Below are positions 5,837-18,856 of a stretch of 64,000 bases of DNA, piece after piece; within the stretch, counting starts at the first letter, position 1; each line of letters begins with the position of its first letter. A model generated the notes under the pieces. The model saw only the letters and a list, made by a program, of their open reading frames with translations, was not told the origin of the DNA and made no database searches. Source of the DNA: Candidatus Beckwithbacteria bacterium. GTDB lineage: Bacteria > Patescibacteriota > Microgenomatia > UBA1400 > CG1-02-47-37. The position numbers were made by a program, and so were the translations under genes. The stretch spans positions 9,481-73,480 of the forward strand of contig JAPLVF010000013.1 of the NCBI GenBank assembly GCA_026397255.1. Reading direction: 5' to 3'.

Positions 5837-6585
5837 TTTAAAAGAGTGATAAAATTTTGTCCGCCTTTAATTCTTCCAGAACCATCAGAAACATTTTTAT
5901 AAGATGTGCCTGTGGCTAAGATTTTAAAGCCAAGTTTGCGGCAAATTTGTTTCATTTTGGAAACACGAATGACTAGGCTGGTTTGATTGACAGGAGCGGT
6001 AGTAATTTCTTTATAGCCTTTAAGGAAAAAGCGGATTTGATCCAGGGGATTTAATTTTGAAAATTTACCAAAATACAATTGAGCCACTCCGCCAACTTTA
6101 AGACAACGACGGGTTTCTTTAAGATAACTAGTTAAATTCTCATAATTTGGCAAGTGTTGAAGGACAATAAATGAATAGATAAAATCAAGACTGTCGGAAG
6201 CAACAGCAATTGAACAACCGGAGGTGGTAAGAAGTTTAAAATTTGTTTTACCCTGAGAGGTTAAAAATTTAATAACGGTGTTTTTTTCTTCATGAATGTC
6301 AATACCAACCACTTGTTTAAAATAACTACAGGCAGCATTAAGAATTCTCCCCCCGCCATAGCCTATTTCTAAAGCAATTTTTTCTTCGGGATTGTTAAGA
6401 TGTCTACAGACCGTTTGAGTGAGAATATGAAAAGTTAAATCCCAATAACCTCTCTTGATTGATTCATTAATATCTTTTGATTTATCAAACCACGCCTGAA
6501 ATGCAGCCATGCCTTTTTTTTTACTGGCTTTAATGGCTTGGCTGTATTTTTTTCTATGCTTAATTAAATCTGAAGACTGACTCAT
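5833..6585 (-). CDS. class I SAM-dependent methyltransferase
   Basis: LEIGYGGGRILN glycine-rich motif I and acidic motif II (FIVLQHL). Confidence 0.65.
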   Translation of the reverse strand: MSQSSDLIKHRKKYSQAIKASKKKGMAAFQAWFDKSKDINESIKRGYWDLTFHILTQTVCRHLNNPEEKIALEIGYGGGRILNAACSYFKQVVGIDIHEEKNTVIKFLTSQGKTNFKLLTTSGCSIAVASDSLDFIYSFIVLQHLPNYENLTSYLKETRRCLKVGGVAQLYFGKFSKLNPLDQIRFFLKGYKEITTAPVNQTSLVIRVSKMKQICRKLGFKILATGTSYKNVSDGSGRIKGGQNFITLLK

Positions 6586-7682
6586 AATTGATTAAATATC
6601 TTTAGCTGAGTTTTAATATTTTTCCTCCAAGTGAATTTATTAATAACATATTTTAAGGCTATTTTGCCCATTTTTTGCCGTAAATCCGGTGATTTAATTA
6701 ATTGAAGTATTTTTTCCACCCAATCATTAACATCCCCTGGTTTAGCTAAAAATCCTGTTTGGCCATCTTGAATAATCTCTCTTATTGAAGAATTATTATT
6801 GCCAATCACCGGGATACCACAGGCGCCGGCTTCAGTCAAAGTCATACCAAAACCTTCTTTTGAAGAAGGTAAAACCAGAATGTCAGCTAAACGGTAAAGT
6901 AATACTTTGTCAGATTCCGGAACAAAACCGGTAAATTTGACTCTATCAGTTAAACCTAAATTCTGAACCTGTAATTTTAATGATTTTTCCAATGGGCCTG
7001 TGCCGGCATAAATTAAAACTGTGTTTTTGTTGCCAATTTTGTCTAAAACTGTTAGTAAAAATGCCGGATTCTTCCGCTGTTTTAACCCACCGACAAATAA
7101 AATCACGAAATTACCTGCCAAATCCCAGTGATCAATAAGTTTTTGGGGTTTTGGACCAGGCTGGAATTCCTTGCCAACGCCATCATAAATTACAGAAATT
7201 TTTTCTTCCGGATAGTTTAATCTTGTAATAATTTCGTTTTTAGTAAAATGGCTAACGGCAATAAGGTGATCAAAATTCCTGATGACGATTTTATCAATTA
7301 AGTGATTAATACCCTCTTCCAGGTGATGATAGGTAGCGATAACCGGTACCTGAGGATAAAGTTTTTTAAAAACGCTGGCAGCCGGACCGACAAAATAAGG
7401 GTTATGGACGCGTAAAATATCAAATTTTTCTGCTTTATAAGTTTTAATTAAATACGGCAGGACAAAAGCAGAAAATACATGGGGCGGAAACATGGGTTTA
7501 ATCGGGGCATATGCTACAGTTAAGTTTTTGTGTTTCAGATATGGCCGGTTTTTGGGCAGTAAGCTGAAAACTTTAACCCCTGCCTGGCAAAGCCGGTTAA
7601 TTACTTCCCGGTCATAAACTTCCCCGCCGGAATTACTTTCCGGACTTAATCCCAGCTCTGGTGAACAAATTTTTAAACCCAT
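6582..7682 (-). CDS. glycosyltransferase family 4
   Basis: SSKEGFGMTLTEAGACGIPVIG GT4 motif. Confidence 0.8.
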   Translation of the reverse strand: MGLKICSPELGLSPESNSGGEVYDREVINRLCQAGVKVFSLLPKNRPYLKHKNLTVAYAPIKPMFPPHVFSAFVLPYLIKTYKAEKFDILRVHNPYFVGPAASVFKKLYPQVPVIATYHHLEEGINHLIDKIVIRNFDHLIAVSHFTKNEIITRLNYPEEKISVIYDGVGKEFQPGPKPQKLIDHWDLAGNFVILFVGGLKQRKNPAFLLTVLDKIGNKNTVLIYAGTGPLEKSLKLQVQNLGLTDRVKFTGFVPESDKVLLYRLADILVLPSSKEGFGMTLTEAGACGIPVIGNNNSSIREIIQDGQTGFLAKPGDVNDWVEKILQLIKSPDLRQKMGKIALKYVINKFTWRKNIKTQLKIFNQL

Positions 7683-7705
7683 TCCCTTATTTTACTGTAC
7701 TTCTC

Positions 7706-8356
7706 TTAATCTTTAAATGTTGCGCTGGCATTACCGTACAAAACCTGGCTCTTATAATTACTCCAAAGCCAGCGGCTAACATATCTTCTCCGGTACGAAG
7801 CAGTAGCGCTAGTCATTTTTCGGTAATTTTTCAGCATCGCTTGCCTGGACCGATCCTGCGCTTGCCGGGCGGTTTGCCCTTTTATTAGAGTAGTAACCAC
7901 TAAGTTTGACGGTACAAGAAATAATTTAGCCATTGAATCAGTCAATGGCCTAGTGCGTTTATCGGAATCATAGCCTAAAATAAATTTTTGGTTATAACCG
8001 ATAAAGGCTTTAGCTCCCTCTTTGATTAATACTTTACCCAAAGTAATCCCGGCATCACAGCTCCGGGCATAAATGATTGTTCCGGCCACTGCCGATTTTT
8101 TGCCGGTTTCCAAAAGCGGTTCAAAATCCTGACCGGTAATGGTTGTGCTATTGCCATGACCGTTCAAAAACAGAATCGCGGGCTGGTTAGATTTAAGACA
8201 ACTGTCAAAATTCTTTTTATTGGCCTTCTTTCCGGCCAAGTCATAAACAGCGAATAATTTTTGTTTGGCGGCTTTGATTACCAAAGTTGACCAATAATAC
8301 AAATAGTTAGTTGCCTCATCATGATTGGATCTTGTTACCAGAAGTGATTTACTCAT
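7706..8356 (-). CDS. hypothetical protein with a possible caspase-fold (clan CD-like) His/Cys dyad
   Basis: Ordered LFLNGHGNS ... IYARSCDAG segments resemble the His then Cys catalytic dyad order of clan CD peptidases. Weak, motif-level only. Confidence 0.4.
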   Translation of the reverse strand: MSKSLLVTRSNHDEATNYLYYWSTLVIKAAKQKLFAVYDLAGKKANKKNFDSCLKSNQPAILFLNGHGNSTTITGQDFEPLLETGKKSAVAGTIIYARSCDAGITLGKVLIKEGAKAFIGYNQKFILGYDSDKRTRPLTDSMAKLFLVPSNLVVTTLIKGQTARQAQDRSRQAMLKNYRKMTSATASYRRRYVSRWLWSNYKSQVLYGNASATFKD

Positions 8357-8561
8357 TTTGGTAAATTGCCCCGGATACCAAATCTTTCAAATATTCGAGC
8401 TCTACCCGCATTATTGTTTTTCCGATTTCATCTTCTTGTTCAATGTGTTTAATTACCGCCTGCTTATTCAGCCTATTTCCGCCAATTGCCATATTAAGAT
8501 TTTCCGGCATTAATTTAGCCCGAGCCAAGGCAATTTTTTTTATTTCATCTTTCGCTCTCAT
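8349..8561 (-). CDS. small hypothetical protein (70 aa)
   Basis: Second gene of the operon. Overlaps both neighbours by 4-8 nt (translational coupling). No Cys, no recognisable domain. Confidence 0.4.
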   Translation of the reverse strand: MRAKDEIKKIALARAKLMPENLNMAIGGNRLNKQAVIKHIEQEDEIGKTIMRVELEYLKDLVSGAIYQNE

Positions 8562-8743
8562 TTGAGAATTTTTAGTTTAGTTAATATTTCTAAAATCTCT
8601 TTTCCGACCGGCGTGTTTTGTTCGACTTCCAAGTGGGCGGCATTCCAGGTTAACGGTTCGTTAGCAATAACAACGACTATTTCGTTTCTGATAGACAAGG
8701 GCAAATTAGCATAGATTTTCAAAAAATCTGTTCTCTTATCCAT
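8558..8743 (-). CDS. small hypothetical protein (61 aa)
   Basis: First gene downstream of a TATAAT-containing promoter-like sequence. No recognisable domain. Confidence 0.4.
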   Translation of the reverse strand: MDKRTDFLKIYANLPLSIRNEIVVVIANEPLTWNAAHLEVEQNTPVGKEILEILTKLKILK

Positions 8744-8744
8744 G

Positions 8745-8764
8745 TAAAAAATTATAGCACAAAA
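8745..8764 (-). promoter_or_regulatory. putative promoter of the long leftward operon
   Basis: On the minus strand, GTGCTATAATTTTTTACATGG with a perfect TATAAT lies just upstream of the ATG at 8743. It sits immediately 3' of a copy of the island boundary motif. Confidence 0.3.
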
Positions 8765-8794
8765 TTTTACTTTACTTCCCGGCTCTTTTCACTT
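8765..8794 (-). repeat. boundary motif copy 1 (plus strand TTTTACTTTACTTCCCGGCTCTTTTCACTT)
   Basis: Identical 30-mer recurs at 10662-10691 and in shortened form at 12894-12918. Each copy sits at the 3' end of a minus-strand gene. Confidence 0.7.
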
Positions 8795-9448
8795 ACTTAC
8801 AGTCACGGTTAAATTCTGGCCGTCAAAGTCAAAACTGAAAGTAATCGGCTGGTCCAGATTGTTAACAATATACAGATTTCCTAAGGGGTTGGGGCTTAAA
8901 ATTCCCACACCGTATTCTTTGGGGACTTCATTAATCTGGGCAAAATTATGGTCAGACGGGCTATGGGCAGTTAAACCGGCATCTTCAGCCGCCCAATACA
9001 TGAGCGAAGCTAAGTGGCAGACGCCGTCGCCGATCAGATGGCCGTCAGACTTAAACCCTTCTGCGCCGTTAAAATGGGCATTAGTGGTTTTAACTACATT
9101 GGCCGAATAATCGGGCAAAGTCTTCTCATGGAAAGCGAATTTTTCACCCGGTTTTAAAGTAAACTGGGTTTTAAACGGCTGGTTAATCCTGTCCCAATCG
9201 ATCTGACTTTTGTCAGTCACCTGATTATCCAGATAGTATAGGGTTAAGAGAATATTATCCTTAAACACTCCGCTCACAAACTCATTATCATATCTGTTTT
9301 CCAGGTTAATACTATGGGATGATAAAACCGCATTGGACGCCCCCAAAATTTGCGGTTGGGCCAAGGCTAAATGAAGCGACAGAATCAGTTCATAAAGCAT
9401 ATTTAAGGGGATATTATACCATATTATAGGATATTTGCCAAACCCCAC
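8789..9448 (-). CDS. VanW-like domain protein
   Basis: GDGVCHLASLMYWAA resembles the GGVCQ[VS]S[TS]LYNA core remembered for VanW/YoaR domains. Confidence 0.5.
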   Translation of the reverse strand: MGFGKYPIIWYNIPLNMLYELILSLHLALAQPQILGASNAVLSSHSINLENRYDNEFVSGVFKDNILLTLYYLDNQVTDKSQIDWDRINQPFKTQFTLKPGEKFAFHEKTLPDYSANVVKTTNAHFNGAEGFKSDGHLIGDGVCHLASLMYWAAEDAGLTAHSPSDHNFAQINEVPKEYGVGILSPNPLGNLYIVNNLDQPITFSFDFDGQNLTVTVSK

Positions 9449-9468
9449 AGAATGGTTTAATCTAAAAT

Positions 9469-10080
9469 ATGACCGGAAAACTAATTGGGTTGTTTTTATT
9501 GGTACTGGGGCTAACTATAGGAGGAATATTTGCTTTCAGGCCAAAAGAAGTTAAACCAAATTTTAGTCTAAAAGTCGAAAACGGGGTGATGGGAGTTTTC
9601 CACGGCCAAGAAGTGATGCCGCCGGCAATTGACTTGGCTGCGGTTGAGCCGGAGACTCAGGTTCTGGGCGACGCCGACCCAAATGCAGAAAAACATATTT
9701 ACATTGATTTAAGTACCCAAACCCTAACCGCCTATCAGGGAGACAGTTTGTTTATGCAGGTTTTGGTTTCCACCGGAAAATGGGGCCGGACGCCGACCGG
9801 TGAATTTACGATCTGGTCCAAATTCCGGGCGACCCGCATGTCCGGCGGCTCAGGGAGCGACTATTACGACCTACCCAATGTCCCCTACGTGATGTTTTTT
9901 TCCGGCTCCGGGGTTGCCGCCGCCAAGGGCTTTTCCATGCATGGTACTTATTGGCATAATAATTTTGGCCACCCAATGAGCCATGGTTGTGTCAATATGA
10001 GGACCGTTGACGCCCAAAAACTATTTAATTGGGCCGGTATTAATGAAAAAATAACGATCTATGGTCAAGCCCCAGGCTAA
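9469..10080 (+). CDS. L,D-transpeptidase (YkuD domain) with N-terminal membrane anchor
   Basis: Catalytic segment HGTYWHNNFGHPMSHGCVNM with the invariant His...SHGC(V/I) Cys motif of L,D-transpeptidases. Hydrophobic N-terminus. Confidence 0.85.
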   Translation: MTGKLIGLFLLVLGLTIGGIFAFRPKEVKPNFSLKVENGVMGVFHGQEVMPPAIDLAAVEPETQVLGDADPNAEKHIYIDLSTQTLTAYQGDSLFMQVLVSTGKWGRTPTGEFTIWSKFRATRMSGGSGSDYYDLPNVPYVMFFSGSGVAAAKGFSMHGTYWHNNFGHPMSHGCVNMRTVDAQKLFNWAGINEKITIYGQAPG

Positions 10081-10660
10081 ATCATCACTGTTAATCATTA
10101 TTTGCGTGGCCGTTATCGGCGGGCTCATGTTTTGGCGCCTTAATCCCCAATCAATCCCAATTAAGGTTATTACCGAGCCGAGTCCCGGCCCGGTGCTAAA
10201 TTTATCTGCCAACTCATCAGACGGGAAAATTTACCTGGAGATGAAGCAGAAAAAGGAAGCGAATACAATAACCTGGACCATGACAGCTAAGCAAGGTGAG
10301 GAAACGGCAAAAACAATCTGGTGGCAGACTTTGCCGGCTGATACCACTATCTCTATTCCGCTCAACTCTGTCTCCCCGGATAATAAATATATGTTTTTAA
10401 AGCAAACCGGGCCCGATAAAACCCGCTATATAGTGTTAACCACCAGCGGCAAGCCGCTGGGTTCAGGATCGCAAACAGTGGAATTTGCCGAGTTGTTCGA
10501 GCTAAAGCACCCGGAATATATTATTACCGAGGTGACAGGCTGGGGCGGAACCAACTTAATTGTGTTTAATACTGACAAAATCGCGGGCGTAATTGGCCCA
10601 TCTTTTTGGTTTGACTTGTCCGGCAAATCGTTTATTCAGCTCTCCCACCGCTTTGATTAG
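10061..10660 (+). CDS. hypothetical membrane-anchored exported protein
   Basis: N-terminal TM helix. Overlaps the L,D-transpeptidase 3' end by 20 nt and is likely co-transcribed. Confidence 0.5.
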   Translation: MVKPQAKSSLLIIICVAVIGGLMFWRLNPQSIPIKVITEPSPGPVLNLSANSSDGKIYLEMKQKKEANTITWTMTAKQGEETAKTIWWQTLPADTTISIPLNSVSPDNKYMFLKQTGPDKTRYIVLTTSGKPLGSGSQTVEFAELFELKHPEYIITEVTGWGGTNLIVFNTDKIAGVIGPSFWFDLSGKSFIQLSHRFD

Positions 10661-10661
10661 T

Positions 10662-10691
10662 TTTTACTTTACTTCCCGGCTCTTTTCACTT
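10662..10691 (-). repeat. boundary motif copy 2
   Basis: Exact 30-mer TTTTACTTTACTTCCCGGCTCTTTTCACTT in the 38 bp gap between convergent genes. Confidence 0.7.
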
Positions 10692-10698
10692 GTTCTCT

Positions 10699-11307
10699 TT
10701 AATTTTCAAATATCATTTTCTTGTAAATTTTCCGGGTAGTCTCGACATCTTTTTCGCAGTACTCACAGATTTCTTTAATCCGGCCAGCTTGATAAGCCTT
10801 AGCCACGTCTTTACCTTCGATTTCCCCTTCTTTAGGGCTGGGAATGCCTAAAACCTTAGACAGCGCGTGCAAAGAAATTTTACTTTGCAGATTCCATTTG
10901 CTCCACTCGCACATAATGTCAAAGATGGGAAAGTTACGGTAGCGGGCAAAGTTTAAGTCTTTGCTGGGCTTAACGCCTAAAATAACCGATCTTTGGTAAA
11001 TAAACCTTAAATCAAAGTCCATCAGATTAAAGCCAATAAATAAATCCGCATTTTTGGCAATAGCCCAAAAATCCGTCAGCATTTTCTTTTCGTCTCCGGA
11101 AAGAGTTTTCACCGCTTCGTCATTAACGGCATAAGAAATGCAGGCGATGCGGCCGTAAGACCCGTCCAGTCCGGTGCTTTCGACAAACTCTTCAAAAGTT
11201 CTTGGGGTATATTTACTTCTTCTTTTCCTCTTATAAATATCTTTGAGGATCTCCCTCATTTCTTCCCCTGACGGCAAAGTTTCAATATCTAAGTAGAGTT
11301 TAGTCAT
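10699..11307 (-). CDS. DnaQ-like 3'-5' exonuclease, PolB-exonuclease-domain-related
   Basis: Exo I YLDIET, Exo II-like GFNLMDFDL and Exo III-like YCEKDVETT motifs in a ~200 aa protein. Confidence 0.6.
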   Translation of the reverse strand: MTKLYLDIETLPSGEEMREILKDIYKRKRRSKYTPRTFEEFVESTGLDGSYGRIACISYAVNDEAVKTLSGDEKKMLTDFWAIAKNADLFIGFNLMDFDLRFIYQRSVILGVKPSKDLNFARYRNFPIFDIMCEWSKWNLQSKISLHALSKVLGIPSPKEGEIEGKDVAKAYQAGRIKEICEYCEKDVETTRKIYKKMIFEN

Positions 11308-11374
11308 ATTTAAATTTTACTACTAATTATTACCTTTAGTTGATCTTTAAACCACTATTCTATATATTCAAGTC

Positions 11375-11986
11375 ATGAAATATGATGAGATGTTTAATAA
11401 AGTAAGGAATTTGGAATTTGATACAGAAATGTCTGTTTGTAAATCTCATGATACGGAACTTTATTTGCTTAGACCATCTGTTCTCTCCAAGAGATTTTCC
11501 ACATATAACGTAAAAAAGAATTTTCAAATATGGCTTAGAACTGTTGCAAGAAATTTTAGACCTAATCATCTTAGGGTTTTTATTGATTTAAACTTAAGGG
11601 TAAGAAGCAGACCAGATTTAAAGGAAAAAATGTTAGTTGCCTTTGATGACATTTTCTACGGTAAAGATCCTAACGAGGTAATTCAGGGTTTGAAAAAAGA
11701 AAAATTTGAACATTTTTTGAACCCAATTGAAATAATTGCTAATTTGTCACAACTTTTCATAATTGAGCAGGCTTACTCATACAACAAAGAAAGCAATTTT
11801 GACCCTCCTACGCTTTTTTACCAAGGATGGATAAGGCAAGTTTTAGATGATATTAAAGAAATTGATAATTTGTGTATGAGTATTTCTAGGGGTCAACCTG
11901 CAGCAGCAAAATATACATCGAAAGAAAATAAAAAAAGTAATAAATTCCAGGCTAAATTAAGGCCCTTGTGGTATATTGAGGCATAG
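11375..11986 (+). CDS. hypothetical protein, candidate restriction endonuclease partner
   Basis: AT-rich ORF convergent with, and overlapping by 35 bp, the DPPY DNA methyltransferase. Possible PD-(D/E)xK-like FDD...E.K segment. No direct homology recognised. Confidence 0.35.
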   Translation: MKYDEMFNKVRNLEFDTEMSVCKSHDTELYLLRPSVLSKRFSTYNVKKNFQIWLRTVARNFRPNHLRVFIDLNLRVRSRPDLKEKMLVAFDDIFYGKDPNEVIQGLKKEKFEHFLNPIEIIANLSQLFIIEQAYSYNKESNFDPPTLFYQGWIRQVLDDIKEIDNLCMSISRGQPAAAKYTSKENKKSNKFQAKLRPLWYIEA

Positions 11987-12812
11987 AATAGTTTTCTTTC
12001 ACTAATCTAAGCTGTTTTTTCTCAAGATTGGATTTTAGCTCTTCAAATCTTTGTATTGATAAATCTAAATACTGTTTTTCAGTGTCAATTCCAATAAATT
12101 TTCTTCCATATAAATAAGCGGCTAACCCCGTAGTGGAACTGCCGGTAAAAGGATCAAGGATTAAATCACCCTTTCTAGTACTGGCTAAAACTATTCTTTT
12201 AAGCAAGTCTATAGGTTTTTGAGTCGGATGTTTTCCAAATTTTTTCTCAATCGGTTTAGGCGTATTAATTGACCAAACTGATCTCATTTGCAAGTTCGCT
12301 TTTTTTAATTGGTCTTCCGGCCAATTACCATCTTTCATCAATTTATAGTTAAAGATGTGTTTACCTTCTTTGTCTTTTCTGGCCCAAATTAGGGTTTCGT
12401 GGCTAGCGGTAAAAAAACGGCAGCTTAAATTTGGAGAGGCATTCGGCTTAAACCAAGCAATATCGTTTAATATGTGAAATTTATTAATTTCTAAGGCCAG
12501 ACCGCATTGATAAATGGAGTGATAAGTTCCACTTACCCAAATAGTTCCATTGGGTTTTAAAATCTTTTTACATAGCTTTAACCATTCTCTATGAAATTCA
12601 AAATTTTTCTTTGTTCCATTACTTAAATCCCAGTCTCCTTTTTTTACACTAACCATTTTCCCGTTTTGGCAGGTGAAACTGCCGCTGGAAAGAAAATAAG
12701 GCGGGTCGGCAAAAATCATATCCACGGAATTCTCCGGAAACTGACTCAAGAGTTTTAAAGAATTACCCAAGTAAAGCTCAAAGTTTAGTTTTTCGTAGTA
12801 AGGTTTTAACAT
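11952..12812 (-). CDS. DNA methyltransferase, N6-adenine/N4-cytosine, beta-class
   Basis: Motif IV IFADPPYFL precedes motif I ILDPFTGSSTTGLAA, the order typical of beta-class amino-MTases (N4/N6 methylase domain). Confidence 0.85.
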   Translation of the reverse strand: MLKPYYEKLNFELYLGNSLKLLSQFPENSVDMIFADPPYFLSSGSFTCQNGKMVSVKKGDWDLSNGTKKNFEFHREWLKLCKKILKPNGTIWVSGTYHSIYQCGLALEINKFHILNDIAWFKPNASPNLSCRFFTASHETLIWARKDKEGKHIFNYKLMKDGNWPEDQLKKANLQMRSVWSINTPKPIEKKFGKHPTQKPIDLLKRIVLASTRKGDLILDPFTGSSTTGLAAYLYGRKFIGIDTEKQYLDLSIQRFEELKSNLEKKQLRLVKENYSMPQYTTRALI

Positions 12813-12893
12813 ATCTTTATGGGATCGGGTTTTATTTGTATATCTTCATTAAGAACCCTTTGGCAAATTTTGTCAACAACTACGTACTTATTA

Positions 12894-12918
12894 TTTTACT
12901 TCCCTATTCTTTTCACTT
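12894..12918 (-). repeat. boundary motif copy 3 (degenerate: TTTTACTTCCCTATTCTTTTCACTT)
   Basis: Shares TTTTACTTCCC and TCTTTTCACTT with copies 1 and 2. Lies between the ImmA stop and the MTase start. Confidence 0.6.
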
Positions 12919-12926
12919 ATGATGGC

Positions 12927-13421
12927 TTAATTCCAATTAGCTAATTTATCGTATAGCTTGGTTTCTTTTAATCTCCACATCATCATATCTTTACTTACCC
13001 AGTAATTTTTTGCTAATTCACTCCAAGATAAAGAGATAAGCCGTTCCGCTTTTATCAATTGTAAAGGCACTAATAATTCGGCGGCAAATTTATTAGCGGC
13101 CACCTCATCGGGATTTTTATTTGAAAAGTCTATTGTTCTGAAACCAGAATTATGCCCCATTAAAATATGCCCCAATTCATGAGCGATCGTATACCTTATC
13201 CTTGTTTCAGGTTTTTTATTATTATATATAATCTGAGTCGTTCCAACACTAAAACCATCCTCATCACCTAAATCTTTGCCTTGAACGGAAATTTTAAAGT
13301 CTACTTGTTTTAAAATTAAGTTTAGTCGAATTGGGGGAATTTTTTGAACACTTTGCTTAATAAGATTTCTGGCAAGTTTTAAAGCAAATCCATTGTCATT
13401 TGGTTCATCTTGAAAATTCAT
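12927..13421 (-). CDS. ImmA/IrrE-family zinc metallopeptidase
   Basis: HELGHILMGH HEXXH motif in a ~160 aa protein immediately downstream of, and overlapping, an XRE HTH gene (COG2856-type arrangement). Confidence 0.8.
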   Translation of the reverse strand: MNFQDEPNDNGFALKLARNLIKQSVQKIPPIRLNLILKQVDFKISVQGKDLGDEDGFSVGTTQIIYNNKKPETRIRYTIAHELGHILMGHNSGFRTIDFSNKNPDEVAANKFAAELLVPLQLIKAERLISLSWSELAKNYWVSKDMMMWRLKETKLYDKLANWN

Positions 13422-13737
13422 CTTTTGAAAGCCTTATGGCTTCATTAATGGCTTTATTAAATTTTGGGTTTTTAAGGGCCTTTTTCGAAGCACGGAAAGA
13501 AATATGAATTGATGGAACGCTAAAACCTTCAATTAATTCTTTCAGACTAACCTGTAATTCTCTAGCAATCTTGGATAACGTTCCAAGATTATTGATTTCT
13601 CTCTCGCCACTTTCATAAAGAGCGATTAATGAGGTAGAAAGTCCAAGTTTATTCCCCAACTCCTGTTGTGACGCCCCGACAGCTTCCCTTGCTTCTTTTA
13701 TGTTTTTCCCAATTTTTTTGAAATTTAACTCCATCAT
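13405..13737 (-). CDS. HTH XRE-family transcriptional regulator
   Basis: IKEAREAVGASQQELGNKLGLSTSLIALYESGER helix-turn-helix segment. Confidence 0.85.
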   Translation of the reverse strand: MMELNFKKIGKNIKEAREAVGASQQELGNKLGLSTSLIALYESGEREINNLGTLSKIARELQVSLKELIEGFSVPSIHISFRASKKALKNPKFNKAINEAIRLSKDEFSR

Positions 13738-13759
13738 GCTAGAGTTTAAACCAAAGTTG

Positions 13760-13815
13760 AAAATTTGTCAAATCTGCTTGTTGACTTTGTAAATATTTTT
13801 GTTACAATACAGACA
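13760..13815. promoter_or_regulatory. divergent promoter/operator region between the XRE gene and the payload genes
   Basis: TTGACT -35, 16 nt spacer, TACAAT -10 on the plus strand. The -35 is overlapped by an inverted repeat TTGTCAA-N9-TTGAC. Confidence 0.4.
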
Positions 13816-13841
13816 TAGTTACTAATTATTTTAATTTAATT

Positions 13842-14207
13842 ATGGGTAAAAGTTCAGAATCTAGACGTAAAAATGAACCGGTCGTTAAATCTCGGGGGTC
13901 AACGGGAAGTTATGCCGCCAGTGGTGGTAATAATTCTATTAAACAAGACTGTCTGTTTAGTCTAAAATTTGAGCAAAAAGTCCCTACTCTCATGACTGTA
14001 ATAGTTGGTCAATACGCTGTTTTGTTGCCGGATAATTCCAATCTTTACCTAAACGTGATTATTGACGGTCAAAGTGCCGGAAGATATTCAGGTAAAATGA
14101 GCAAAAAAGTAATTAAGTGTATTAGCGAGGGCTTTGTTTACGAAGGTAAGGTCATCTCTATTAAGGATAGCTCCCTGGCAGTAATCGAAGTTAAGGGCCG
14201 TGGATGA
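13842..14207 (+). CDS. hypothetical protein (121 aa)
   Basis: First gene divergent from XRE/ImmA. Stop overlaps the next start (ATGGATGA). Confidence 0.55.
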   Translation: MGKSSESRRKNEPVVKSRGSTGSYAASGGNNSIKQDCLFSLKFEQKVPTLMTVIVGQYAVLLPDNSNLYLNVIIDGQSAGRYSGKMSKKVIKCISEGFVYEGKVISIKDSSLAVIEVKGRG

Positions 14208-15186
14208 AAAAATTACAGATCAGTTAGAATTTTGGGGTCTCAATGGTTTATCAACAGCGCGCATATCCGGTTGTCCAGTCGTTGATTATTTAGATGATTG
14301 CGACAGCGCTTGTTATCCAACAAAACCTTCAAAGTACGAAGCGCTGACGTGTGGCAGCAAAAAAGGGGCTCAATTTTTGGGAGACGCAAGGGGGGCGACA
14401 TTAAACAACATTAAAGCGTTGAGGGTAAAAATTCCAAAACTGCCAATTTTCATCCCGGAATTACAACATGGTAGCAAGTACTTAGTTAATAATACTAAAT
14501 TAGATTGGGTGGCAGTCAAAATTGACGAAGTTGTGTCAAAACATGATTTAAAAGTTGCCGCTGATATTCGTAAAAGAATAGGAATCGATTCAAAAACAAA
14601 AGTACTATTACTTGGTTACGGATCCGACCGGTTTTTAGAGAATTTATGGACAAACAGGAAGAAAATCTTTCCTCAAATCGCCAGCTTGAAAGCGGATCTT
14701 TACACGGCCATTGACTATTCAGTTTTTCTCGTTCACCCACACCTCGAGAGAGTTCTTAACGTTAAAAGAAGTTTGGTGACTTTTGATATTTTACAAAGGC
14801 TAGGAGTTCCGGTCGTGCCGCATATTTATTGGAGCGGGGAAAAAGACATGAAAAGATGGGCGTTCTGGCTGAACCAAAATTCTGGAGTAAATTTAGTGTC
14901 CATGTATTTAGGTTGGATTAGAAAAAGCGAATGGGTGAAAATATTTTCAGAGCTTAAGTGTCTAAATAAATCGCTTGAGAGAAAAATAAATTACTTGATA
15001 AGCGGGCCGGGCAATTTAACAGAAATAAAACCGTTAAAAGAAATTCTCGGAAACGTAATTTTAACAGACGCAGAATGTGCCTTGAATGCGGCACATCATA
15101 AATTAAGTCAAAATAAATTAAAAGTTACTTACTATCCATTCAAGGAAAATTTAGATTACCATACAGAATTAGTAAAAGCCGCATAA
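14200..15186 (+). CDS. hypothetical protein (328 aa)
   Basis: Translationally coupled to the 121 aa ORF. No motif I can assign with confidence. Confidence 0.55.
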   Translation: MDEKITDQLEFWGLNGLSTARISGCPVVDYLDDCDSACYPTKPSKYEALTCGSKKGAQFLGDARGATLNNIKALRVKIPKLPIFIPELQHGSKYLVNNTKLDWVAVKIDEVVSKHDLKVAADIRKRIGIDSKTKVLLLGYGSDRFLENLWTNRKKIFPQIASLKADLYTAIDYSVFLVHPHLERVLNVKRSLVTFDILQRLGVPVVPHIYWSGEKDMKRWAFWLNQNSGVNLVSMYLGWIRKSEWVKIFSELKCLNKSLERKINYLISGPGNLTEIKPLKEILGNVILTDAECALNAAHHKLSQNKLKVTYYPFKENLDYHTELVKAA

Positions 15187-15201
15187 GGGGTGAGCAACCT
15201 G

Positions 15202-15267
15202 TGATAAGATAAATTTATGAAAAAAGTGATGGTGACGGGGAGCGGAGGGTTCATTGGAAGACAGCTG
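15202..15267 (+). pseudogene. duplicated epimerase promoter/5' end, copy A (MKKVMVTGSGGFIGRQL then stop)
   Basis: TGATAAGATAAATTTATGAAAAAAGTGATGGTGACGGGGAG... nearly identical to the true epimerase start at 17987-18045. Reading frame terminates after 17 codons. Confidence 0.7.
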
Positions 15268-15280
15268 TAGGACGGAAGCA

Positions 15281-15735
15281 CTATTTATAACTAGCAGGAC
15301 AGTTTTTTGCCTTGGTAAAACCGGCTTTACGGGCTTCGGCTTCGGTGCAGAACCAACTATCGCCGTTGTGCAATTGAACATCAACCTTGTTGTAGTAACC
15401 GCAGCCAGGAAAATAATAGGTCATTTCGCCGCTGTTCTGACTGATATCAGCAGAATTTAGTTTAATGTTGCCTTTTATTTGACAATCCGAATTTTCCGGG
15501 TTAAACCTTTGAGTGCAGAGTTCGCTAAAGACCCCCAGTTTGGCCGCCCTGGCTTTTTTGGTGGCCGGCAATTAAAGCCGCCTTATTCCCGCCATATTGA
15601 CTATGAACTTCCGACCAACCAGATGCCAGCATGTTTTCATCGACAGAACCGTCTTCAGTATAAACAAGAGAGATTAATCGGCTAGAATCGCGATAAACGA
15701 CCTTGAGATAAATGTCTTTATTTGGATTTTTTGGC
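15281..15735 (-). pseudogene. thermonuclease (SNase-like) remnant with Cys-rich C-terminal domain, frameshifted and N-terminally truncated
   Basis: Upstream frame encodes LISLVYTEDGSVDENMLASGWSEV, like the SNase C-terminal half. The 96 aa ORF in another frame encodes CQIKGNI...YYFPGCGYY...WFCTEAEARKAGF. A T6 run lies at the frame junction. Confidence 0.5.
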
Positions 15736-15777
15736 TCTTGCGGCAGGCATTACTTAATTGTAACTCAAGTGCAGAAA

Positions 15778-15808
15778 TCAAGTTGTGTTAAGATAAGGAG
15801 TGTTGATG
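15778..15808 (+). repeat. partial copy A' of the epimerase upstream sequence
   Basis: ATCAAGTTGTGTTAAGATAAGGAGTGTTGATGAA versus ATCAGTTGTGTGATAAGATAAGTTTATGAA at 17971-18000. Confidence 0.5.
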
Positions 15809-15812
15809 AAGG

Positions 15813-16277
15813 TTATTTTCTCTTACTTAATGACTTAACGATTAAATTTTGAGCCACAGCCGGATCTATGTGATCGGCTTTAATGAAAAGAATTTGGCGT
15901 TCAGGAAGATATTTCTCAGGCAAAAACCGCCAAATCATAGCAGGATCAATTTTAAACTCTGCTTTGGTATCAATAGGGATAATCGAATCGCCTTGCTGCG
16001 AAAGCCCGAGATCGCCTAATATAGTGTGAAATCCTAAACTCAGGTCATTGATTAATGAACGCCAGTTTTCCCGCTCTTGAAACGTAACCGGACTAACCAG
16101 AAAATAATATCCGGGGCGGGCTTTTATTTTCTGAGCGTCTTCAGGTTTACTCAGATCACAAAAACTAATTTGTTTTTCGCCAATTGCACCAATTTCCATA
16201 ATTGAAAGAACGGTGGTTACTCGCGAGGTTTTTCTGCCTGGATGGAATAATTTATCCCAAGTTTCTTTAAAAGACAT
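15813..16277 (-). CDS. hypothetical protein (154 aa)
   Basis: Second gene of a two-gene unit bounded by epimerase-5' repeat copies. No recognisable domain. Confidence 0.55.
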   Translation of the reverse strand: MSFKETWDKLFHPGRKTSRVTTVLSIMEIGAIGEKQISFCDLSKPEDAQKIKARPGYYFLVSPVTFQERENWRSLINDLSLGFHTILGDLGLSQQGDSIIPIDTKAEFKIDPAMIWRFLPEKYLPERQILFIKADHIDPAVAQNLIVKSLSKRK

Positions 16278-16298
16278 AGATTTCGGGCAGACGGGGAA

Positions 16299-17090
16299 TT
16301 ATACCAGGTTGGGGAAGAGAAAGCCTTTGATATCTAAAAAGTCAATTTTTTTATCCTTGACAAAAATCCTGTCTTTACCACTGATATCAATTTGCCTGGG
16401 AACATAAATTAAGCCGTTAATTTCCCTTAAATCATCCGGTAATACTTGTTTCTTTCGGGAAAAAGCTGAAAGTTTATCGGTAAAATCCTTCAGCGGACTC
16501 ATCCTTTGTCGATGTAAAGCATAACTCGATTCTTTTGGTTTAACAAACAACTTTAAGATGCTTAATTTTGTTTGCTTATTTTGCTTCTCTACTAATGCCT
16601 CTAAGCGAGCTTGAGTATCATCCTTTTCCAACATTGGATTGGCGCCGCTTAAAATTAATAAACCTTCGTTATCCCCAATCACTGTTTTAACGCCGGTAAA
16701 AAATTTCCTTAATTTGAGAACGGCTTGTTTCATTGAATGAAATCTGCCTTCTCTAAATTCAATCGGCTGGTGAAGGCCAACAGCATTACCATGGTTATCT
16801 TTGGCCAACATCAGGGCGCAAAAACTGGCACCATGTATAAAAATTACGGCCGGATCTGTTTCAGTGGAAATAATATTCTCAGAATCTTTGATTTTTTCAA
16901 ATCCGGGCGTGGTTTCATAGACAGTCGGATCTGCCGAGCGAACCTTAAAGCCACTTTTAGGCAAAGATTGCTGTAAATTTTCCGGAGAGGCGTAAGCAAT
17001 TGTGGTATCAAATTTTTTTAGGACATCAAGTATAGGAGAAGGTTCAAGCGTTTGGGGTAAACCCCGGTTAATTTCAAAAAAATCCTGCAT
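16299..17090 (-). CDS. hypothetical protein (263 aa)
   Basis: First gene of the two-gene unit. No recognisable domain. Confidence 0.55.
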   Translation of the reverse strand: MQDFFEINRGLPQTLEPSPILDVLKKFDTTIAYASPENLQQSLPKSGFKVRSADPTVYETTPGFEKIKDSENIISTETDPAVIFIHGASFCALMLAKDNHGNAVGLHQPIEFREGRFHSMKQAVLKLRKFFTGVKTVIGDNEGLLILSGANPMLEKDDTQARLEALVEKQNKQTKLSILKLFVKPKESSYALHRQRMSPLKDFTDKLSAFSRKKQVLPDDLREINGLIYVPRQIDISGKDRIFVKDKKIDFLDIKGFLFPNLV

Positions 17091-17100
17091 ATTTATTATA

Positions 17101-17157
17101 TGATAAGATAAGTTTATGAAAAAAGCGATGGTGACGGGGAGCTCGGGGTTTATCTAA
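17101..17157 (+). pseudogene. duplicated epimerase promoter/5' end, copy B (MKKAMVTGSSGFI then stop)
   Basis: 53 nt almost identical to 17981-18033, then divergence and a TAA stop. Confidence 0.7.
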
Positions 17158-17243
17158 AGACACCTGATAGAAAGACTGAAAAAGGAAAAGTTTAAGAAAT
17201 TTGTCAATAGCCGCTTGACAACGTGCTATAATGAAATTACATA

Positions 17244-17311
17244 GACCCTGTTTCTGAATTGTCACCGTAAGGTGCGCGTTCTCAACTAACGTTGAGATAG
17301 GAACCAGGGTC
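17244..17311. other. structured RNA-like element (long closing stem with two internal hairpins, one with a GNRA loop)
   Basis: GACCCTGTTTCT pairs with AGGAACCAGGGTC, enclosing CACC-GTAA-GGTG and TCTCAAC-TAAC-GTTGAGA hairpins. Lies 3 nt beyond the DUF3800 stop on the minus strand. Confidence 0.3.
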
Positions 17312-17314
17312 GCT

Positions 17315-17938
17315 TTATTTAAACGGCCAAATATCTTCAATTCTTCTTGACCTTTTAAGCATAGTTAAATAATCAGAATCTTTTTTTGTAAAGTCAGAGA
17401 ACACTGCCCCAGCTACCATATCAGCCAGTTGAATCAGCGTGTTTTGTCTTGAATCCACAAACTTTAAATCTTTAAAGATTTTACTGTTCTTATTGTCTAA
17501 ACGCCTGGATAAATAAACTCTTAACTGATTCCTTAGGGTTCTCTCTCCTCTTTTATCAACTTTCAATTTTGCGTTTTTTATTGATCCGCCGCTTTGTTTC
17601 AAAACCTGCATGATTACATAGTTATAAAAATCTTCTTTATTGCTTCTTAATCTTTGGCTGCGAATTAATGCTTTGTTAACCATAATGGCTCTAACCCTAA
17701 ACTTAAATGATCTGATAGCGTTGAAAAAGGCTTTGCGAAATTTTCTGTTGGTTTTATTGAACTTAAATTCGTATTTATCTTGTAATTTCAGTTTTCTCCT
17801 TAGTTCTTTAATTGCCACCGAGGTCTTTTCTGCTTCCAGGTTGTCATTGAAAATAACTAAGGCCAACACAAAAATATCGCTTGAGCCTTTTTGGAGCTTA
17901 AAACCTGGATCTCCGGATTCGTCAATAAAAACTATCAT
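17315..17938 (-). CDS. DUF3800 family protein
   Basis: N-terminal MIVFIDESGDPGF matches the conserved iY/F-IDESG start remembered for DUF3800 proteins. Confidence 0.65.
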   Translation of the reverse strand: MIVFIDESGDPGFKLQKGSSDIFVLALVIFNDNLEAEKTSVAIKELRRKLKLQDKYEFKFNKTNRKFRKAFFNAIRSFKFRVRAIMVNKALIRSQRLRSNKEDFYNYVIMQVLKQSGGSIKNAKLKVDKRGERTLRNQLRVYLSRRLDNKNSKIFKDLKFVDSRQNTLIQLADMVAGAVFSDFTKKDSDYLTMLKRSRRIEDIWPFK

Positions 17939-17995
17939 TAAATTATTTTATCACCTAAGGCCTGAAAAATATCAGTTGTGTGATAAGATAAGTTT

Positions 17996-18856
17996 ATGAA
18001 AAAAGCGATGGTGACGGGGAGTTCGGGGTTTATTGGGAGAAAACTGATCAAGAGATTACAAAAAGACGGGGTGGAGGTAGTGGGGTTTTCTAGAAAAGAG
18101 GGGAAAAATATCACCAAAAAGGAAGATTTTGCGGGGTTGGGAAAGGTGGACACGGTGTTTCATCTGGCGGCAGTGTCGGGGTATAAGGACTGTGCGGAAA
18201 ACACCGGTTTGGCGTATGAGGTGAATGTGGGCGGAACAACTAATGTTTTAGAATATTGCCGGAAAAGCAAGGCAAAATTAATTTTTCCCAGCACGTATGT
18301 TTATGACCAGCCTTATTCAGAGGTGAAAACGGAAACGAGTGCGACGAAGCCGACGACGCATTATTCTTTCACGAAATTCTTAGGCGAAGAACTCTGTCGT
18401 TTTTACACGCGGGTATTTAAAGTGAACAGTTTGATTTTACGAACAGCCAATGTGTTCGGATTTGGCCAAGAAGACAAGTATTTGGTGCCGATTATCTTTA
18501 ATAATATTCTGGCAGGCCGAGAGTTTGAGCTGACCAAGCCGGAAATTGAACGGAGTTTTATTTATATTGCTGATTTGGTGGAGGCTTATGTCCGTCTGGC
18601 AGAAGCGAATAGCGAAAGCGGAGAAACATATAATATCGGACCGGAGAAGCCAACAACTTTGCAGGAATTGGTGCAGGCGATGGAGAAGGTAACCGGAAAG
18701 AAAGCCCGGGTAAAATATTCCGGCCAAGAGCGGCCAAATGAAGTGAATTTAAACCGGGTGGATACAGGTAAGATGAAAGCAAAACTTAACTGGCAGCCGG
18801 AAATCAGTTTAGAGCAGGGATTAAAACAATATCTGGAAAAACTTCATGAAGTTTAA
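17996..18856 (+). CDS. NAD-dependent epimerase/dehydratase (extended SDR)
   Basis: GSSGFIGRKL Rossmann motif and YxxxK (YSFTK). This is the intact copy of the repeated 5' end. Confidence 0.85.
   Translation: MKKAMVTGSSGFIGRKLIKRLQKDGVEVVGFSRKEGKNITKKEDFAGLGKVDTVFHLAAVSGYKDCAENTGLAYEVNVGGTTNVLEYCRKSKAKLIFPSTYVYDQPYSEVKTETSATKPTTHYSFTKFLGEELCRFYTRVFKVNSLILRTANVFGFGQEDKYLVPIIFNNILAGREFELTKPEIERSFIYIADLVEAYVRLAEANSESGETYNIGPEKPTTLQELVQAMEKVTGKKARVKYSGQERPNEVNLNRVDTGKMKAKLNWQPEISLEQGLKQYLEKLHEV

Follow-up and report, generated by a model that had tools for sequence, protein, structure and literature searches.

A glycosylation locus of a Candidatus Beckwithbacteria bacterium (assembly GCA_026397255.1, contig JAPLVF010000013.1, positions 9,481-73,480 of the forward strand; these 64,000 nt are called the window here) contains an insertion hotspot in which at least six modules, named A-F, are stacked between two conserved operons. 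The repeats that separate them, D1 and D2, are copies of promoters and of a gene 5' end, suggesting that the modules are flanked by duplicated target, as in "insertion with long target duplication". At a little above even chance, we favor a recombinase-free hotspot in which modules were inserted with target duplication and joined by host recombination; the recombination mechanism itself we infer from sequence comparison.

The site and its flanks

The first-pass annotation described an accessory island of about 10 kb within glycosylation genes that end at 7682 and restart at 17996. Pfam matches to a GT4 glycosyltransferase and an NAD-epimerase bear out these two positions, and the remainder of the window also encodes glycan machinery (GT4, GT2, PMT-type GT-C, EpsG, YfhO, and a flippase). 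The features that frame the site are:

6582-7682, minus strand: GT4c, a GT4 glycosyltransferase (Pfam Glycos_transf_1, E 7e-45), the last glycosylation gene on the left
7706-8356, minus: p216
8349-8561, minus: p70
8558-8743, minus: p61; p216-p70-p61 form a clade core unit outside the variable island
8751-8759, minus: extended -10 box TGCTATAAT of the p61 operon, read from the sequence; left edge of the hotspot
17969-18856, plus: NAD-epimerase gene with its live D1 promoter, ATG at 17996 (Pfam Epimerase, E 1e-42, and synteny); right edge of the hotspot

Synteny was compared across 17 related loci, using a tblastn map and junction sequences. GT4c is syntenic in L004, L008, L009, L011, L012, and L014. 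p216 was found in L002, L003, and L006-L017 at 63-90% amino acid identity (42% in the distant L017), accompanied by p61; p70 was detected in all p216-carrying relatives except L017, and L004 is without it. None of the three proteins has a Pfam or PDB match. Their genes adjoin GT4c in every close relative, including those in which the site is empty, and only the distant L004 lacks the unit, its GT4c lying directly beside the epimerase gene. This makes the unit an earlier insertion that has become fixed, and leaves 8765-17968 as the variable island (about 9 kb, from the p61 promoter to the epimerase start). Homology to L002, L003, and L016 ends at 8765 (blastn), and the p61 -10 box is also present in the empty-site relatives. 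The left border first proposed was thus off by 1 kb.

The notion of a hotspot itself stands, as the site is empty or otherwise filled in relatives. It consists of a gap of approximately 40 bp between back-to-back extended -10 promoters, from which the p61-p70-p216-GT4 operon runs leftward and the epimerase gene rightward. In three relatives (L008, L014, and L015) the site is empty, with approximately 40-45 bp from the p61 start to the epimerase start. Other cargo occupies the same site in L016 (~150 bp), L011-13 (~600 bp), L007 (~725 bp), L002 (1.1 kb), and L003 and L006 (1.7-1.8 kb); in the last two, an XRE-Panacea gene stands where modules A-C stand in the window. L016 retains 36-nt and 34-nt scraps of the XRE/ImmA pair of L002. 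In no relative did these genes recur at this position without repeats at the boundaries, the pattern expected of ancestral content.

Junction positions vary, falling in the -10 box (L002, L007, and module E of the window), at +8 (L011), or at about +58 (module D). A DUF5674 pair of 669 nt (87% nucleotide identity) sits at one intergenic site in L007 and at another in L011, and in L011 it has no target duplication or flanking repeats. In addition, the identities of p216 and the epimerase are incongruent (87% vs 59% in L015, 69% vs 71.5% in L003), which we count in favor of recombination at the site.

Tetranucleotide distance at 8.5-13.5 kb reaches +2.7 to +3.5 sd, exceeding every window outside the island. 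The GC content of the whole window is 0.397, and 1.5-kb windows outside the island average 0.399 +/- 0.028, with a minimum of 0.341. The segment at 11.3-12.8 kb, singled out early on as AT-rich, has a GC content of 0.330 with 500-nt minima of 0.298-0.31.

The absence of mobility genes was also corroborated. No ORF of at least 60 aa matched an integrase or transposase family in Pfam, and PADLOC, NCBIfam, and PHROGs gave no such match for a selection of ten proteins, p216 and nine encoded in the island. No recombinase was found among ten large ORFs sampled from the window outside the island, and no tRNA gene in the 64 kb. Terminal inverted repeats were not found, the repeats form no hairpins, and the D1 cores lack dyad symmetry.

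Modules and the repeats between them

The left half of the island contains the following features:

8765-8794, minus: D2 copy 1 (D2-1), promoter-like GTGAAA-17-TAAAAT on the minus strand (promoter scan)
8789-10660, mixed: module A (Pfam; GC 0.455), flanked by D2-1 and D2-2
8789-9448, minus: VanW (Pfam), module A
9469-10080, plus: YkuD, L,D-transpeptidase (Pfam), module A
10061-10660, plus: p199, module A; hydrophobic near the N-terminus, possibly a secreted or membrane protein
10662-10691, minus: D2 copy 2 (D2-2), 30/30 identical to copy 1
10699-11307, minus: PolB_exo2/DEDDh, PolB-like exonuclease (Pfam PF10108)
11375-11986, plus: p203, no family match; predicted model with pLDDT 95, no fold match among solved structures
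11952-12812, minus: N6_N4 MTase, CcrM/HinfI-like N6-adenine methyltransferase (PADLOC MTase_II, E 5e-97)
~12889-12918, minus: D2 copy 3 (D2-3), diverged; 23/24 match just upstream of the exonuclease start in L024
12927-15186, mixed: module C (Pfam)
12927-13421, minus: ImmA/M78 (Pfam), module C
13405-13737, minus: XRE (Pfam), module C
13842-14207, plus: p121, module C
14200-15186, plus: p328, DUF4417-like (weak; Pfam), module C

Pfam confirmed the VanW/YkuD, exonuclease, XRE/ImmA, and DUF3800 genes that had been listed for the island. Of the supposed restriction-modification (R-M) pair, the methyltransferase holds, while the restriction half is unproven, as p203 has neither a family match nor a fold relative. 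The p121-DUF4417 pair of module C also occurs in L018 and L019, where in L019 it is adjoined by ImmA and XRE; no repeat pair flanks this module. By its composition, the MTase/p203 segment looks foreign.

The same cannot be said of all content, which had been taken to be foreign cassette cargo. Homologues of the PolB-like exonuclease number >1180 in CPR lineages (60-92% identity), and p263 of module E has a homologue in a transketolase-TspO-GreA operon. Judged by this homology, both belong to conserved lineage families and are not foreign genes. In close relatives, the usual locus of the exonuclease gene is beside xseAB, and in seven of them (L021-25, L032, and L033, one being the MAG of L003) the gene lies in this other locus, with variable modules upstream. 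Homology to L032 spans 10704-11350, covering the gene and 43 nt upstream; on this alignment, the 43 nt are ancestral exonuclease context, and a conserved CPR gene is found here outside its usual locus. The exonuclease gene has diverged from relatives (85-87% nucleotide identity) about as much as the p216 unit has (88%), which suggests a native gene.

The locus upstream of the exonuclease gene is a second hotspot, with the same kind of fossil 5' ends in relatives. In L021-23 and L025, fossils of the exonuclease 5' end (75-87 nt, 85-89% identical) lie upstream of the inserted modules, and L025 keeps a mini-copy of the 5' and 3' ends. D2, for which no copies are expected by chance, matches the sequence upstream of the L024 exonuclease gene (23/24 and 30/33), and D2-1 abuts the p61 -10 box. 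As D2 is absent from the empty site of relatives, the repeat is, for modules A and B, not a duplication of the site's own sequence.

The block of D2-3, MTase, p203, and exonuclease looks like a piece of this second hotspot. It is possible, if rather unlikely, that most of the left half (module C, D2-3, MTase/p203, exonuclease, and perhaps module A) was assembled there and moved here as a block, either by intragenomic rearrangement or on a chromosomal fragment imported from a related cell. The relatives with the exonuclease elsewhere, the L024 match of D2-3, the L032 context, and the similar divergence of exonuclease and p216 unit all point this way. Such a move would, however, leave unexplained the perfect 30-nt repeat that brackets module A and the position of D2-1 against the p61 -10 box, and the MTase/p203 segment would still look foreign.

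The right half contains:

15190-15287, plus: D1 copy 1 (D1-1), fossil epimerase promoter and 17 codons, then a stop
15284-15797, minus: module D (blastn to L003 and L006), comprising an SNase pseudogene with its promoter region and a promoter-only fossil
15284-15722, minus: SNase pseudogene, with a frameshift (two frames by tblastn) and ~93 N-terminal codons missing relative to the intact 238-aa gene of L006 and L003
~15781-15797: promoter-only fossil of the epimerase promoter, a fourth copy, with its break at -5, within module D
15813-17090, minus: module E, p154 (15813-16277) and p263 (16299-17090)
17089-17186, plus: D1 copy 2 (D1-2), fossil epimerase promoter and 13 codons, then a stop
17244-17315, plus: DUF3800-IX RNA (Rfam RF02968; cmscan 64.1 bits, E 2e-12; fold z-score -3.2), with its own TGCTATAAT box ~11 nt upstream
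17315-17938, minus: DUF3800 protein (Pfam E 5e-19; PADLOC PDC-M04A), forming module F with the RNA

The three copies of D1, starting at 15190, 17089, and 17969, again have a chance expectation of 0. Two repeat sets do mark module borders, as was first noticed, and they are not element-borne sites: D1 is the duplicated epimerase promoter with the first codons, and D2 is promoter-like. Over -17..+26, D1-2 and D1-1 match the live copy at 42/43 and 41/43 positions, respectively; identity then drops to 68% and 48% across +27..+70 and is at background level past +70; the break after +26 is the same in both. The distal part of D1-2 resembles the L007 allele. The suspected nuclease remnant proved to be a real pseudogene; its arrangement with the fossil is common to L006, where SNase is intact and the D1-1 fossil is further deleted, while L003 is without this fossil. 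The duplications are of unequal length: ~97 nt, including a 43-nt core, at module F, ~11 nt at E, and 30 nt at A. Possibly they did not all arise by a single process. The predicted fold of p263 is that of a CheD/NTAN1-like Cys-His amidohydrolase, deamidase-like; given this fold and the unmatched fold of p203, neither looks like a recombinase.

How the modules may have arrived

On the epimerase side, the insertions fell within the epimerase promoter or its first codons. Each left the old promoter and 5' end beyond the insert as a fossil, with a promoter/5' copy still standing before the gene, and the outcome is the chain of D1-1, promoter-only copy, and D1-2. On the p61 side, copies of the 30-mer D2 separate modules A and B. 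Under recombinase-free insertion, these events would be insertions with long, variable target duplication, in which incoming DNA, possibly a circular intermediate with 10-100 nt of homology to the target, is joined by Campbell-type or short-homology host recombination, with no element-encoded integrase. Survivors would presumably be enriched for inserts that leave both flanking operons transcribed. Fossils and cargo subsequently decay by deletion, as illustrated by the SNase pseudogene, the short L006 fossil, the absence of this fossil from L003, and the L016 remnant. The newest module probably lies beside the epimerase: F, then E, then D.

We also observed that this order conflicts with the position of A-C in the place of the L006/L003 XRE-Panacea gene, unless there was a second growth point or a replacement.

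Site-specific integration by a recombinase encoded elsewhere or on a helper element, with epimerase -17..+26 as att core and D2 as a second att, seems doubtful to us. The near-identity of the 43-nt core in three D1 copies, the sharp drop after +26 in two independent fossils, and the identity of D2-1 and D2-2 would fit, and integration into a gene 5' end has a precedent in SXT and prfC (PMC2791158). However, no recombinase was seen in the island or the ten ORFs sampled elsewhere, junctions differ between events and lineages, module E has just ~11 nt repeated at its borders, no repeats accompany the move of the DUF5674 unit, and the cores have neither dyad symmetry nor hairpins. The analysis covered these 64 kb of the genome, and a recombinase acting in trans, genes for competence, or another copy of the exonuclease gene could lie beyond them.

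It is very unlikely that the array is an assembly artefact, in which strain variants with one module each were threaded through a common 42-nt core. The source is a MAG, and an independent Logan contig (L020) ends inside the 42-nt core of D1-2, so that the order of module E, core, fossil, module F, core, and epimerase has the MAG assembly alone behind it. That contig, however, reproduces 7676-17130 at 100% identity, the fossil-SNase arrangement recurs in L006 from another sample, and five unrelated contigs carry analogous fossils. Moreover, D1-1 shares no exact run >15 nt with other copies and therefore cannot cause mis-threading. A decayed prophage, ICE, or plasmid that lost its integrase, as the MTase, XRE/ImmA, and DUF3800 families and PHROG matches of the exonuclease might hint, is improbable in the extreme, as the island lacks structural, replication, and conjugation genes and has no match in phage, plasmid, and viral contig collections beyond the MTase, its internal fossils show several separate events, and relatives have different single modules at this site.

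Comparison with known systems

The locus is a clear example of an insertion hotspot without mobility genes, rather than something fundamentally new in kind. "Insertion with long target duplication" was reportedly described by Nobusato and coworkers in 2000. As there, small gene units that lack a transposase and an integrase lie between direct repeats, tens to hundreds of bp long and variable in length, which correspond to a single-copy sequence in a related genome whose site is empty, and the insert is often AT-rich. Furuta, Abe and Kobayashi (2010, PMC2853133) described R-M units that lack mobility genes and whose insertion duplicated 30-420 bp of target, for the most part in species with natural competence. 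Unlike those single R-M events, most modules here are not R-M (DUF3800 with its RNA, SNase, a deamidase-like pair, and cell-wall enzymes), they are stacked serially at one site, the target is a promoter with a gene 5' end, the host is a CPR bacterium, and D2 is not a duplication of the site's own sequence.

Neisseria minimal mobile elements (PMC3787668) and core defence hotspots of P. aeruginosa (PMC10250203) likewise have conserved flanks with incongruent identities, content that varies between close relatives, a richness in defence or selfish genes, and no MGE hallmark genes. The models proposed for them involve replacement by homologous recombination in the flanks, leaving no scars (PMC3787668, PMC10250203). 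The internal scars of our locus, fossil promoters and 5' ends, argue for additive insertions instead.

SXT also inserts into the 5' end of a conserved gene, displaces the old 5' end to the far side, can form tandem arrays, and has identical att-like cores. It supplies the target gene with a replacement 5' end, consisting of a new promoter and first codons. In contrast to the 0.7-2.3 kb modules described here, which carry no integrase and vary in their junctions, SXT is ~100 kb and needs its own tyrosine integrase; IMEX elements borrow Xer. Finally, module F does not differ from the textbook pair of a DUF3800 gene and a nearby DUF3800-associated RNA on the other strand (Weinberg et al. 2017, PMC5737381; RF02968), a likeness that accounts for this one module only.

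Synteny and borders of the variable island

The glycosylation genes break off where the first-pass annotation had placed the break: a GT4 glycosyltransferase gene ends the left block at 7682 (-), an NAD-dependent epimerase gene opens the right block at 17996, and beyond the island the rest of the 64 kb encodes glycan machinery. The window contains no tRNA gene. Weak similarities of 70-72% (42662-42880 with 45835-46056, and 34696-34827 with 48602-48733) occur among large PMT-type membrane glycosyltransferase genes, which are probably paralogues.

Loci of relatives were fetched through the epimerase (genome collection) and by alignment of p216 (metagenomes), and the window proteins were mapped onto them; proteins designated pN have N residues. 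The conserved backbone consists of a GT2 gene and the epimerase gene, followed divergently by p61-p70-p216-GT4c-GT4b-MT-GT4a, where GT4c is the GT4 glycosyltransferase to the left of the island. The site is flanked by the p61-p70-p216 unit and the epimerase in L002, L003, L007, L008, and L011-L016, with GT2 behind the epimerase wherever a relative's contig extends that far. At an empty site, the p61 start is followed by the p61 -10 box; 7 nt separate this box from that of the epimerase, which lies 5 nt before the ATG.

Table. Distance from epimerase start to p61 start, and content of the site
L008, L014, L015: ~40-45 bp; empty
L016: ~150 bp; remnant
L011-L013: ~600 bp; NYN gene
L007: ~725 bp; DUF5674 gene and gene for a 101-aa protein
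L002: 1.1 kb; XRE-like and ImmA-like genes
L003, L006: 1.7-1.8 kb; XRE-SocA_Panacea and SNase genes
Window: 9.2 kb; modules A-F

Because both spacing and content vary among relatives, with the empty state included, the site is a true hotspot between conserved flanks, as had been proposed, and its ancestral state is empty. No relative was found to carry the same genes at the same place without boundary repeats. The earlier idea of an inserted island is thus right in substance, but its left border, set at 7690, has to be moved to 8765: p216, p70, and p61 are present in every close relative, including those with an empty site, so the variable island begins behind them, and homology to L002, L003, and L016 ends exactly at 8765. 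GT4c directly adjoins the epimerase only in the distant locus L004, where p216, p70, and p61 are absent, which suggests that these three genes entered the same divergent promoter at an earlier time and became fixed. The pattern LNGHG...RSCDAG in p216 recalls a His-Cys dyad of the caspase/gingipain type; p216 found no match in Pfam, PHROG, PADLOC, NCBIfam, or PDB.

Identities are incongruent across the hotspot when window positions 17996-18856 and 7706-8356 are compared among loci L002-L016 (L015, 87% for p216 versus 59% for the epimerase; L003, 69% versus 71.5%). From these sequence comparisons, the right-hand glycan genes may have been exchanged independently of the left-hand ones. For transformation with homologous recombination in the flanks, the incongruence is at most indirect evidence; the window does not cover the competence and rec genes.

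Gene content and composition

The gene inventory of the first-pass annotation was confirmed by the ORF list and Pfam scans, except that the restriction half of its restriction-modification (R-M) pair is unproven. The genes to the left of the island and within it are as follows:

7706-8743 (-), left of the island: p216, p70, and p61, no family
Island: VanW and YkuD genes (Pfam)
Island: p199, with a hydrophobic N-terminal stretch, which may be secreted or membrane-bound
Island: PolB-exonuclease-like DEDDh protein
Island: p203, no family
Island: CcrM/HinfI-like N6-adenine methyltransferase (MTase)
Island: ImmA and XRE genes
Island: p121 and a weak DUF4417 protein
15190-15800: gene-poor stretch
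Island: p154 and p263, no family
Island: DUF3800 gene

An ORF at 17074-17340 was rejected as spurious. The R-M pair is left unproven because the model of p203, the partner of the MTase, is confident (pLDDT 95) and has no solved structural relative; no recognisable nuclease was found in p203. PDB sequence searches returned nothing for p263, p154, p203, p199, or the p216 profile, and looking up the exact epimerase sequence yielded no record. The p121-DUF4417 pair recurs in L018 and L019, in the latter beside ImmA/XRE. Module F combines the DUF3800 gene with a DUF3800-IX RNA (64 bits, E 2e-12), matching a known pairing (PMC5737381).

Matches to defence systems in PADLOC were MTase_II, the DUF3800 candidate PDC-M04A, and a weak match for the DEDDh protein. 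XRE/ImmA, the DUF4417 pair, and SNase do no more than suggest a defence role, and VanW/YkuD, p263, and the exonuclease do not count as defence genes.

The composition of the island is mildly atypical. GC content is 0.397 for the window and 0.399 +/- 0.028 (minimum 0.341) for 1.5-kb windows outside the island. The AT-richer segment described earlier was recovered at MTase/p203 (GC 0.330, with 500-nt minima of ~0.30), and module A (VanW, YkuD, p199) has a GC of 0.455. Tetranucleotide distance at 8.5-13.5 kb is +2.7 to +3.5 sd, above every window outside the island.

Duplicated promoters and gene starts at module borders

Module borders had been described as marked by two different repeat sets. 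Duplicated segments do mark the borders, but both sets read as promoters: D1 comprises the promoter and 5' end of the epimerase gene, and D2 (TTTTACTTTACTTCCCGGCTCTTTTCACTT) is a 30-nt promoter-like sequence. Their copies are:

15190-15287: D1-1, fossil
~15781-15797: fourth copy, epimerase promoter only, breaking off 5 nt before the would-be ATG
17089-17186: D1-2, fossil
17969-18066: D1-3, live copy
8765-8794 and 10662-10691: D2, identical at 30/30 positions
~12889-12918: D2-3, diverged copy

D1 contains the extended -10 box (TGTGATAAGAT), the ATG, and the first codons of the epimerase gene and is single-copy, as the epimerase promoter and 5' end, in L008, L014, L015, and L004. In the two internal copies, the reading frame is closed by a stop after 17 and 13 codons. 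From -17 to +26, they are identical to the live copy at 42/43 and 41/43 positions; identity falls to 68% and 48% over +27 to +70 and to background beyond ~-28 and +70. The switch from ~98% to ~68% at +26 would be the expected trace of a crossover within a short identical stretch, and the distal part of D1-2 is closer to the epimerase allele of L007 than to the resident one. Module F is bracketed by the ~97-nt D1 repeat with its 42/43 core, module D (the SNase pseudogene) is flanked by the repeat with the 41/43 core, and module E (p154 and p263) is bracketed by only an ~11-nt repeat of the -10 box (TTAAGATAAG / GATAAGATAAG).

Related loci carry part of the same record. Positions 15200-15722 are collinear with L006, which has a D1-type fossil (its ATG changed to ATA, ~32 nt shorter), an intact 238-aa SNase gene, and the live epimerase; L003 has the SNase gene and lacks the fossil. 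In the window, SNase is a pseudogene in two reading frames, with ~93 N-terminal codons missing. The old epimerase -10 box remains beside p61, with the insert after it, in L002, L016, and L007, as does the epimerase promoter plus ATGAAAAC in L011, and L016 keeps only scraps of 36 and 34 nt of the L002 XRE/ImmA pair. A fossil epimerase ATG in L007 was considered and rejected: comparison with L011 assigns 'CTTAGGTATG' to the DUF5674 module, leaving only the old -10 box.

A contig from an independent Logan assembly (L020) matches window 7676-17130 with 100% identity and ends inside the D1-2 core. It thus reproduces the gene order between p216 and p263; across D1-2/D1-3, the order is that of the MAG assembly alone.

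The DUF5674 unit (669 nt, DUF5674 and 101-aa genes with their own -10 box) occurs at L007 1716-2382 and L011 5708-6376, and also in L012, with 87% nucleotide identity. In L007 it occupies the gap between p61 and the epimerase, and in L011 and L012 it comes just after p216; it has no long flanking repeats and, at the L011/L012 site, no target duplication was found. The p216-GT4c gap is a second insertion point there (L011 5699-8878, L012 4655-7834), holding the DUF5674 pair, a 524-aa protein without a family match, and a RhuM/Fic-like protein; no fossil 5' end of GT4c was found at this site in L011 or L012. The Logan contig begins at the same p216/GT4c junction (7676).

The identical copies of D2 flank module A. 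On the minus strand, a promoter scan reads D2 as sigma-70-like, GTGAAA-17-TAAAAT. Relatives with an empty site lack it there; in L024, it is found upstream of the PolB-like exonuclease gene, where 23/24 positions immediately upstream of the gene match D2-3. For D2-1/D2-2 and for module C (ImmA, XRE, p121, DUF4417), no single consistent history could be reconstructed. Just upstream of the GT4c start, 7689-7717 (-) (GAAGTACAGTAAAAT, then AAGGGA and ATG) is similar to the exonuclease promoter of L024 and to D2 in its distal half; either a promoter type common in the lineage or one more trace of this sequence may account for the likeness.

The exonuclease marks a second hotspot. Its homologues number >1180 across CPR lineages (60-92% identity), and seven close relatives (85-87% nucleotide identity) carry it at another locus, one such contig (L033) coming from the same MAG as L003. 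Variable genes for DndB, XRE-Panacea, HsdS, an SLFN-type helicase, Bro-N, and trypsin lie upstream of it, and SNase, RhuM, and xseA/xseB lie downstream. Here, too, inserted modules are preceded by displaced 5' ends, in this case of the exonuclease gene:

L021 1523-1597, L022 2812-2890, L023 1304-1378: displaced 5' fragments, 75-79 nt
L025 2758-2870: displaced 5' fragment, 87 nt

The modules that follow encode either XRE-SocA_Panacea and a 125-aa protein or Bro-N and a trypsin-like protein. In L025, the first 90 nt of the gene are fused to its last 30 nt, a 5'+3' mini-copy that is the remnant of a former larger or full second copy. A D2-like 13-mer upstream of the fossil in L021/L023 points the other way and falls within the end of a coding sequence; it was dismissed as chance.

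Since 43 nt upstream of the window exonuclease still match the context in L032, and D2-3 is a promoter of the L024 type, the block of D2-3, MTase, p203, and exonuclease looks, by these matches, like a piece of the exonuclease hotspot. Block transfer from that hotspot may have contributed to the left half of the island, although we rate it as less likely than not; it would be compatible with the insertion model set out below. The serial cassette acquisition proposed earlier agrees with additive insertions, but part of the content consists of relocated conserved genes.

Origin of the insertions and comparison with known systems

Insertions at the epimerase were additive, segments of promoter and gene start were duplicated at module borders, and old copies and cargo decayed by deletion; the same signature is present at the exonuclease gene in relatives. 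We infer, as slightly more likely than not, that host recombination joined incoming or looped-out DNA to the target through short homology (Campbell-type), and that selection favoured inserts leaving both flanking operons transcribed. A further-reaching reading, which we regard as doubtful, is an integrase-free, self-perpetuating cassette traffic in Beckwithbacteria-like CPR bacteria. Recombination between the duplicated segments would loop small modules out as circles. Taken up as DNA by other cells, these would integrate again in a few conserved genes (epimerase, PolB-like exonuclease), at the promoter or the first codons; every such event would supply the promoter anew and leave behind a fossil that can be dated.

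Insertion by a single dedicated integrase or site-specific recombinase is improbable. The shared break at +26 keeps this explanation alive, but junction positions and repeat lengths vary and no recombinase was found. In line with the first-pass annotation, Pfam detected no integrase or transposase among island ORFs of at least 60 aa, nor did PADLOC, NCBIfam, or PHROGs for the ten proteins chosen for those searches; the predicted folds of p203 and p263 do not appear recombinase-like.

The locus lacks the defining features of an integrase-borne genomic island (SXT-like or tRNA-island-like; no tyrosine or serine recombinase domain found, no tRNA gene in the window), an integron (no IntI; modules multi-gene, on both strands, with their own promoters; repeats folding no better than shuffled ones, z-scores +0.5 to +1.3), or an IS, transposon, or MITE (no transposase; inverted matches weak, AT-rich, and none at a module end), and it fails the test for a prophage remnant. 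D1 and D2 form no hairpin, attC-like or otherwise, and terminal inverted repeats are missing from all modules, which led us to reject a transposon-like nature. Viral contigs contained no match to p263, the DUF4417 protein, or the D2 pattern, and in phage and plasmid collections a blastn search with 8 kb of the island found weak MTase matches only.

To our knowledge, very little is known about genome plasticity and routes of gene exchange in CPR bacteria. The series of fossil promoters and gene starts, some of it common to relatives, records additive insertions made repeatedly at the promoter and 5' end of one gene. Its recurrence at a second gene in related genomes suggests a process acting across the lineage in CPR bacteria. 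A practical marker for such insertions in metagenomes is the presence of duplicated 5' ends in front of conserved genes. If true, integrase-free cassette traffic would be a general way of building accessory and defence islands that needs no mobile-element genes.

Rather than being an element of a new kind, the locus extends the established ideas of insertion with long target duplication and of core hotspots. Like the minimal mobile elements of Neisseria (PMC3787668) and the core defence hotspots of P. aeruginosa (PMC10250203), it behaves as a recombinase-free hotspot; unlike both, it has kept internal scars. The assembly of recombinase-free hotspots and of defence islands is explicitly called an open question in the P. 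aeruginosa study (PMC10250203). Insertion with long and variable target duplication has been described for R-M units, mostly in competent bacteria (PMC2853133). Its flanking direct repeats of more than 30 bp have counterparts here around modules F, D, and A (30/30), and E has only ~11 nt. The original definition refers to R-M units; only one module here has an MTase, whose partner p203 is no recognisable nuclease, and the others are unrelated to R-M. The insertion by host recombination proposed here would fit this process.
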